From Escherichia coli (GTDB taxonomy: Bacteria; Pseudomonadota; Gammaproteobacteria; Enterobacterales; Enterobacteriaceae), in assembly GCF_050320075.1 (NCBI RefSeq), contig NZ_CP190018.1: a stretch of DNA of 64,000 nucleotides. One strand, 5' to 3'. Below are positions 49,908 to 52,900 of the stretch, piece by piece; the stretch's first letter is position 1; every line of letters starts with the position of its first letter. The position numbers are program-made.

Positions 49908-52900
49908 TGATTCAGGAGTGCGTTATGGACAGTCTCAATCTTAATAAACATATTTCCGGCCAGTTCAACGCCGAACTGGAAAGCATCCGCACGCAGGTGA
50001 TGACCATGGGCGGCATGGTGGAGCAGCAGCTTTCTGATGCAATCACCGCGATGCATAACCAGGACAGCGATCTGGCGAAGCGCGTCATCGAAGGCGACAA
50101 GAACGTCAACATGATGGAAGTGGCGATCGATGAAGCCTGCGTGCGCATTATCGCCAAACGTCAGCCGACGGCGAGCGACCTGCGTCTGGTTATGGTGATC
50201 AGTAAAACCATTGCCGAGCTGGAGCGTATTGGCGACGTGGCGGACAAAATCTGCCGTACTGCGCTGGAGAAATTCTCCCAGCAGCATCAGCCGTTGCTGG
50301 TAAGTCTGGAGTCGCTGGGCCGTCATACCATCCAGATGCTGCACGACGTGCTGGACGCGTTCGCGCGGATGGACATTGACGAAGCGGTACGTATTTATCG
50401 TGAAGATAAAAAAGTCGATCAGGAGTACGAAGGTATTGTTCGTCAACTGATGACCTACATGATGGAAGATTCGCGCACCATTCCGAGCGTACTTACCGCG
50501 CTATTCTGTGCGCGTTCAATCGAACGTATCGGCGACCGCTGCCAGAATATTTGTGAGTTTATCTTCTACTACGTGAAGGGGCAGGATTTCCGTCATGTAG
50601 GCGGTGATGAGCTGGATAAACTGCTGGCCGGAAAAGACCCGAAAGAGTAACGCTAACTGTAGGTCAGATAAGGCTTTTACGCCGAATCTGGCAATCAGCC
50701 CGGTCATACATAGTTACCGGGCTGGGTGATGCTGCCAACTTACTGATTTAGTGTATGATGGTGTTTTTGAGGTGCTCCAGTGGCTTCTGTTTCTATCAGC
50801 TGTCCCTCCTGTTCAGCTACTGACGGGGTGGTGCGTAACGGCAAAAGCACCGCCGGACATCAGCGCTATCTCTGCTCTCACTGCCGTAAAACATGGCAAC
50901 TGCAGTTCACTTACACCGCTTCTCAACCCGGTACGCACCAGAAAATCATTGATATGGCCATGAATGGCGTTGGATGCCGGGCAACTGCCCGCATTATGGG
51001 CGTTGGCCTCAACACGATTTTCCGCCATTTAAAAAACTCAGGCCGCAGTCGGTAACCTCGCGCATACAGCCGGGCAGTGACGTCATCGTCTGCGCGGAAA
51101 TGGACGAACAGTGGGGATACGTCGGGGCTAAATCGCGCCAGCGCTGGCTGTTTTACGCGTATGACAGGCTCCGGAAGACGGTTGTTGCGCACGTATTCGG
51201 TGAACGCACTATGGCGACGCTGGGGCGTCTTATGAGCCTGCTGTCACCCTTTGACGTGGTGATATGGATGACGGATGGCTGGCCGCTGTATGAATCCCGC
51301 CTGAAGGGAAAGCTGCACGTAATCAGCAAGCGATATACGCAGCGAATTGAGCGGCATAACCTGAATCTGAGGCAGCACCTGGCACGGCTGGGACGGAAGT
51401 CGCTGTCGTTCTCAAAATCGGTGGAGCTGCATGACAAAGTCATCGGGCATTATCTGAACATAAAACACTATCAATAAGTTGGAGTCATTACCCCTGTGCG
51501 TTATGGTTGTTTATTGAAGATATATGGAAGCTATCATTTGTTAAAGCTATGGTTGTGCTAAAATTATGGTGGTGATCAGCGCTCATGAAATCAAATGTAA
51601 CAATGTCGTTGTTTCCTTTCTTTTCTTTGTGATATGCGTTTAAAAAAGAAATATTTTCGATCTGTTCATCAGTTAATGTAAATGGCATTTCGTCATCAAA
51701 GAAAGCGTAATCGGCATTTGGGAGAGGAATACTCTCAATTGAGCATAGTTTTAATAAAAAAACATGAAAACAATGAAACATGTTTTTATACATAAGAGAA
51801 CTTAATCGCTGTTGTATCTTCTGTAGTTGTCCTTTGGGAAATAAATGCTGTAAATTTGAAAATGAGCCATCTAAAATATATTTATATGTAAAAAGGTCCT
51901 CTCTCTGACCAGTTATCAAAAAATCGTCAGGTGATTTAGAAAAACGATTGAGATGACATAAATATTCCATTTGCTCCGTGTCTATATACTTATGGGGAAC
52001 TACGTAGTTTGGTGGTGTGCCAATAAGATTATCCATAAATCACCTTGATAAAAGTTAATAAAATCTCTTTATTTTAACCTCGACAATAAAAGCGGCTATA
52101 AAAAATCGCTCATTTTCTGATGCTGCGGTTAATCCGTCGAATGTGCCGTTAACCCACTAAAAATTGCAAATCCAGGGTAAACACCCTGGGTTAAAATGGA
52201 AATAATGAGCTATTTTTTACAGTATTCACCGGTAATATAAGTAATACTTGTTGCTAACCTAACTAGCAGTACAGTTAATTAACAACATAGAAGTTATTGT
52301 TTTTCAAACAACTCAACAACTCAATATTGCACGCCGGAGGATTTATGGTCGCTAAATTAAAACCAGATGTTCTTTTTAATACTAATCCTTTTTTAGAAGC
52401 AATGAATAAGGAGAGACTTAATCATAAAGGATATTGTGATAAAATTGCTTTAAGTATTAATGATAAGAAATATAATGTAAACTCTAAGGATATTGAAAAT
52501 ATTCTTGATGGCAAAGGGGATTTATTTAAAAAACGTACACTGTGGGAGTTTGTTCGCGATCTTTTTCCCGGCTCTCATATTAAAGAAGTCAAAGGCTTAA
52601 TTTACGAATTTGTCACGAAAGTTGATAACAAAGCCGAGGTGTTCGATAAGATTAAATCTCTGGCAAAAAAAGAACAACAATGGCGATTTAGTACTAAGAC
52701 AGACTTTACCACAAATGAAAATAATGAAGTTATTGTGAGTAGATCCTTTAATCTCTACACGGGGGCTACTTCGAATGATAACGAAAAAAAACAGGTTTCT
52801 TCAGAGAGATTAACGCTTGATAATTATATTGATGATTTACATTTTGATAATTCTCCCTTGAAGAGATTTATGTTTGATGATTATGCTGTAAAACTTACGA

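Follow-up and report, generated by a model that had tools for sequence, protein, structure and literature searches.

IS1 in the Z5211-5214 island downstream of phoU

We analysed the segment that separates phoU from yieH in a 64,000-nucleotide stretch of Escherichia coli DNA (assembly GCF_050320075.1, contig NZ_CP190018.1; the whole stretch is called the window hereafter). This segment is a genomic island of low GC content that harbours a complete copy of the insertion sequence (IS) IS1. The element is not flanked by a target-site duplication (TSD), and 3,964 bp of island DNA are missing at the position that it occupies. The locus is bordered by pstSCAB-phoU upstream and by yieH-adeP-yieF-yieE-yidZ downstream. 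Where strain K-12 has bglGFBH-yieKL-cbrBC between phoU and yieH, the window has a segment of 31-32% GC instead: the sequences cease to be homologous 13 bp ahead of the phoU stop codon and align again from the 3′ end of yieH. On the basis of this comparison and of its low GC content the island remnant, IS1 included, was delimited at 50638-54894. Between 49900 and 56500 the window is identical to strain YZLc1-3 (chicken, China), with which it shares a 12.6-kb stretch without a single base difference, and it is nearly identical to strain Ec-U3 (human urine, Burkina Faso).

The locus is an island already on record, Z5211-5214 (bgl-Z locus type III). This Z-locus was described next to pst-phoU as a region of about 30% GC with two large paralogous open reading frames (ORFs), inherited clonally, found mainly in phylogroup D-related lineages and subject to occasional insertions and deletions (Sankar et al. 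2009, PMC2646131). The island shares with the Z-locus the position between phoU and yieH, the replacement of bgl-yieIJ, a GC content of about 31% and three ORFs, two of them large and paralogous and the third smaller (PMC2646131). Unlike the described locus, the copy in the window is devoid of 3,964 of 7,454 bp and carries IS1. In RefSeq the genes of the Z-locus are now listed not as ORFans but as EspY4 type III secretion system effector, type III effector or pentapeptide proteins. In IS-free relatives, phoU is followed by a gene for a product of 756-832 aa labelled "type III effector / hypothetical" (plus strand), then by a 395-aa pentapeptide-repeat gene (minus strand), and then by espY4, which encodes 802 aa (plus strand). 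The intact island of strain 746 measures 7,454 bp, and island DNA was matched in 1,109 of 5,426 complete E. coli genomes.

IS1 elements are about 768 bp long, have imperfect terminal inverted repeats of about 23 bp and generate a 9-bp duplication at a simple insertion. The element in the window (50725-51492, plus strand) was identified through its exact ends, its ORFs and its frameshift motif, and is complete at 768 bp. Its left and right inverted repeats, GGTGATGCTGCCAACTTACTGAT (50725-50747) and ATCAATAAGTTGGAGTCATTACC (51470-51492), were each found as a single exact occurrence within the window, with none expected by chance, and are complementary to one another at 18 of 23 positions. ORF calling placed insA at 50780-51055 and the insB′ frame at 50974-51477, both on the plus strand, with an overlap around the A6C motif of the -1 frameshift (AAAAAAC, 51031-51037). 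RefSeq labels the identical DNA of YZLc1-3 as "IS1B family transposase, programmed frameshift", and the products of an identical IS1 copy (L014) match Pfam families PF03811, PF12759 and PF03400 (Zn_ribbon_InsA/HTH_Tnp_IS1, DDE_Tnp_IS1). The element has every defining feature of IS1 except the target duplication, which is missing because of the deletion documented below and not because the element itself differs.

The nine bases to the left of IS1 (50716-50724, ACCGGGCTG) and the nine to its right (51493-51501, CCTGTGCGT) are unrelated, as had been reported from the same two 9-mers in the initial annotation of this stretch. The two 30-bp flanks have no k-mer of 6 bp or longer in common. We also looked for direct repeats of 8-10 bp after sliding the ends of the element by -4 to +4 bp, and the best candidate reached only 5 matches out of 8, so that no 8-9 bp repeat emerged at any of the offsets tried. 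The same end definitions yield perfect 9-bp duplications for the IS1 copies that strains SCU-313, A3176 and 405/B20105 carry in this island (TAAATCATT, CCTTTTTTA and TGAATTATT, respectively). The duplication is therefore truly absent from the window copy, and its absence does not stem from a mis-set boundary.

Island DNA is missing where IS1 stands

As a reference for the undeleted locus we used strain 746 (locus L009), the closest IS-free relative. The left flank of the element, 100% identical to the reference over 825 bp, ends at the junction 50724/50725, window position 50724 corresponding to L009 position 1536. The right flank, 99.96% identical over 5 kb, begins at the junction 51492/51493, window position 51493 corresponding to L009 position 5501. 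In strain 746 the two flanks are collinear, in equal orientation, and 3,964 bp apart. Our results show that this DNA (L009 1537-5500, 31% GC) is absent from the window and that IS1 stands in its place. Gone with it are an entire 832-aa effector-like gene (L009 1889-4387) and, from the 395-aa pentapeptide-repeat gene, the C-terminal 214 codons, which leaves an ORF of 182 aa. The initial annotation had taken IS1 for a recombination junction, a proposal supported by flanks that lie 3,964 bp apart in an IS-free relative. It had envisaged either recombination between two IS1 copies or an adjacent deletion in which the 182-aa ORF would have lost its 3′ end and the cassette perhaps more DNA; both losses are borne out by the 214 codons and the 832-aa gene that are gone. 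The comparison with IS1-free relatives that it had proposed reveals an undeleted, collinear island in strain 746, and none of the genomes without IS1 has the same junction.

Both junctions are present in YZLc1-3, Ec-U3 and GCA_965285185.1, which are independent assemblies, and the last of these carries an identical IS1. The exact 182-aa product was found on 109 contigs (NCBI, ENA and Logan), which implies the right junction there, and short-read contigs cross from the truncated gene into the end of IS1. When the left and right junctions were searched separately in the complete genomes, only YZLc1-3 and Ec-U3 proved to have either. Strains 405, B20105 and GN25 had been considered as sharing the left junction and were rejected: their IS1 lies 88-111 bp further right and stems from different events. 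Altogether the pattern suggests one deletion event that has since been passed down within a lineage.

It is extremely improbable that no deletion took place, that is, that a duplication decayed by point mutation, that the ends of IS1 were wrongly set, that the junctions are an assembly artefact, or that an inversion or a translocation separated the flanks. The bare absence of a repeat, and nothing more, speaks for these explanations. They are contradicted by flanks that lie 3,964 bp apart in relatives and keep the reference orientation, wrong ends in particular by the perfect 9-bp duplications that the same ends give in other strains, and an artefact by junctions that recur in three assemblies and on 109 contigs. 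As for a rearrangement, the missing segment was not found elsewhere in the window, and no reciprocal junctions were found in the 5,426 complete genomes. Furthermore, a search with the whole island returned one place only per genome in 1,109 of 1,109 island-bearing genomes, which must include YZLc1-3 and Ec-U3. Since island DNA occupies a single place per genome, the event was a deletion and not an inversion or a translocation. Duplication decay, wrong ends, artefact and inversion or translocation are all refuted by these results.

At the right junction, the cut in the pentapeptide-repeat gene falls exactly at the end of IS1, at codon 181 of 395. What is left of this type III effector-like gene (51488-52036, minus strand) consists of codons 1-181 of the 395-aa protein, and residue 181 is followed by a glycine and a TAA stop, both contributed by the right end of IS1. 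The parent protein has only weak pentapeptide-repeat matches in Pfam, at aa 229-304, within the lost part, and a Pfam search with the 182-aa remnant gave no match. The ORF is what is left of a gene, and a pseudogene label would be the right annotation. In this lineage the Z-locus has been deprived of the pentapeptide gene and of one large EspY-like gene out of two. The 90%-identity cluster to which the truncated protein belongs (51491-52036, minus strand) has 1,375 members. The 15 cluster members listed are 102 to 242 aa long, compared with the full 395 aa, and several are labelled partial, which suggests that the parent gene is frequently broken or partly assembled across E. coli.

The left junction lies 74 bp past the stop codon of phoU and 87 bp inside the left edge of the island. 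It had initially been placed at the phoU boundary; the junction is indeed near phoU, but the gene itself (49925-50650, plus strand) is intact. Its last 13 bp (50638-50650) belong to the island variant. With the core-island boundary thus placed within the gene, the C-terminus of PhoU differs from that of K-12, reading GKDPKE in the window and in Z-locus strains versus GKDSDK in K-12. Folding predicts a stable hairpin downstream of phoU, CAGCCCGGT-N11-ACCGGGCTG (50696-50724, plus strand), in which the left flank of IS1 serves as the 3′ arm. The GC-rich stem of 9-11 bp can still form in the window, where the exactly abutting IS1 has cost it 2 bp (AT..AT) that IS-free relatives retain. In strain 746 the predicted energy of the hairpin is -22 kcal/mol, with z = -4.8. 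A role as a terminator was considered and rejected: the hairpin was not called by a pattern scan and has no T-run.

Origin of the deletion

IS1 is a classic producer of adjacent deletions, which were reportedly first described by Reif and Saedler in 1975 in the gal region of E. coli K-12. The locus is like such a deletion in that an intact IS1 is kept and the deletion begins exactly at the end of the element. Further points in common are the lack of a 9-bp duplication, the collinearity of the flanks with an undeleted relative and the disappearance of the deleted DNA from the genome. Structurally nothing differs between the two; the precursor insertion is not seen, and we infer the mechanism from its product. 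We favour an IS1 adjacent deletion produced by intramolecular transposition, to which we give a probability of roughly 60%, because a single prior insertion suffices and because this is classic IS1 behaviour. A standard IS1 would have inserted into the AT-rich Z5211-5214 island in an ancestor of the lineage. One of its ends would have remained joined to the DNA beside which it had first landed. The element would have used an island site about 4 kb distant as its new target, and the 3,964 bp in between would have been lost as a non-replicating circle. The retained IS1 would then be bordered by one original and one new target flank, hence without a 9-bp repeat.

Precursors were searched for with synthetic junctions for both sites, one consisting of the IS1 right end, ACCGGGCTG and downstream island DNA, and the other of upstream island DNA, CCTGTGCGT and the IS1 left end; the strings diagnostic of the precursors are GGAGTCATTACC+ACCGGGCTGATACAC and GAATATAACCTGTGCGT+GGTGATGCTGCC. 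The outcome is one of several points that weigh against an intramolecular event: neither site gave a full-length match in the 5,426 complete E. coli genomes, where only chance IS1 flanks were hit. In addition, two IS1 copies in direct orientation would leave exactly this end product if they recombined homologously. Finally, both flanking 9-mers are fairly GC-rich compared with the AT-rich duplications of the simple insertions in the island, and neither flank can be named as the original IS1 site. The absence of a transient intermediate does not exclude a precursor and is to be expected anyway. Since no precursor was found, the two-step order of events is a matter of inference, and so are the question of which flank is ancestral and the preference for intramolecular transposition over recombination between IS1 copies.

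Adjacent deletion and recombination between IS copies have both been reviewed as causes of a missing duplication (PMC11708052). In the second case, two IS1 copies would have inserted in direct orientation, one 74 bp past phoU and one in the pentapeptide gene at codon 181, with a separate 9-bp duplication for each; RecA-dependent homologous recombination would then have removed the DNA between them together with one of the copies. We regard this as a possible but rather unlikely origin of the locus. It yields the exact end product, each flank being half of a different duplication, and deletions between two direct IS copies likewise leave one IS flanked by unrelated 9-mers, a route listed as a frequent cause of missing duplications (PMC11708052). 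With at least 8 distinct IS1 configurations among the 1,109 island-bearing genomes, a double insertion is not absurd either. This origin, however, takes three events instead of two and requires a two-IS1 intermediate. None was seen in the islands examined: no island with two IS1 copies occurs among the IS1-carrying matches listed, of which eight were inspected in a survey that was not exhaustive. Neither of the single-insertion precursors was found. Moreover, TSD-less deletions outnumber simple insertions in the island (5 versus 3), which fits a process that needs one resident IS1, as an intramolecular adjacent deletion does. A single step, in which an incoming IS1 and the loss of the 3,964 bp came together, with no duplication at any time and no resident IS1, would account for the lack of a resident-IS1 precursor at either junction in the 5,426 complete genomes. 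Such a process has been put forward for other IS families, namely for IS5 and IS481 under the name "IS movement with large deletion" (PMC11708052). It is nevertheless improbable here, clearly more so than two insertions followed by recombination: it is not documented for IS1, a lacking transient precursor is expected anyway, and 14 of 14 comparable IS150-associated deletions in the long-term evolution experiment were stepwise adjacent deletions (PMC11708052).

IS1 and other lesions across the island

Among the complete genomes examined, the island shows at least 8 independent IS1 configurations, namely 5 TSD-less deletions, the window type included, and 3 simple insertions. The TSD-less IS1 copies of other strains border deletions of about 2.1 kb (GN25), 3.15 kb (ET201), 1.2 kb (ECNB21-M121) and 1.1 kb (E1). 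For 4 of the 5 TSD-less deletions (window type, ECNB21-M121, ET201 and E1) the right-hand end-points fall within 340 bp. This cluster (L009 5292-5632, approximately 51284-51624 in the window) falls in the 5′ half of the gene for the 395-aa pentapeptide protein. Only 1 bp separates the end-points of ET201 and E1, whose IS1 copies point in opposite directions. We consider it doubtful, though conceivable, that the island is a hot spot for IS1 erosion, be it through recurrent selection for the loss of silent effector-like genes or through strong structure-directed targeting (for example of H-NS-bound curved DNA), or that such events are one-step insertion-deletions in which no duplication ever arises.

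Other changes were noted in the island and beside it. The first large island ORF varies in length between 756 and 832 aa and is frameshifted in several strains, and strain EFF60 has IS5, not IS1, in the same island, which thus seems to be decaying by several routes. The retained island gene espY4 (52345-54752, plus strand; 802 aa in relatives) is split in the window by the shortening of an A8 run to A7 at 54259-54265, which leaves ORFs of 670 and 98 aa; strains 746 and Ec-U3 and assembly GCA_965285185.1 have A8 and an intact gene. Either YZLc1-3 has a true frameshift of its own here, or the homopolymer was misread in sequencing. Further downstream, yidZ (58606-59564, minus strand) has a 10-bp deletion at about 58903 relative to strain 746, giving ORFs of 232 and 122 aa; for YZLc1-3, the RefSeq annotation records a frameshift in this gene.

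The finding is an ordinary, already known kind of IS-associated deletion and not a new kind of feature, and it is one more natural case of a mechanism known since the 1970s. As a clonal marker the IS1 junction is clean and could be typed by polymerase chain reaction. It is of some mild interest that the same small AT-rich island has been independently struck and eroded by IS1 several times.
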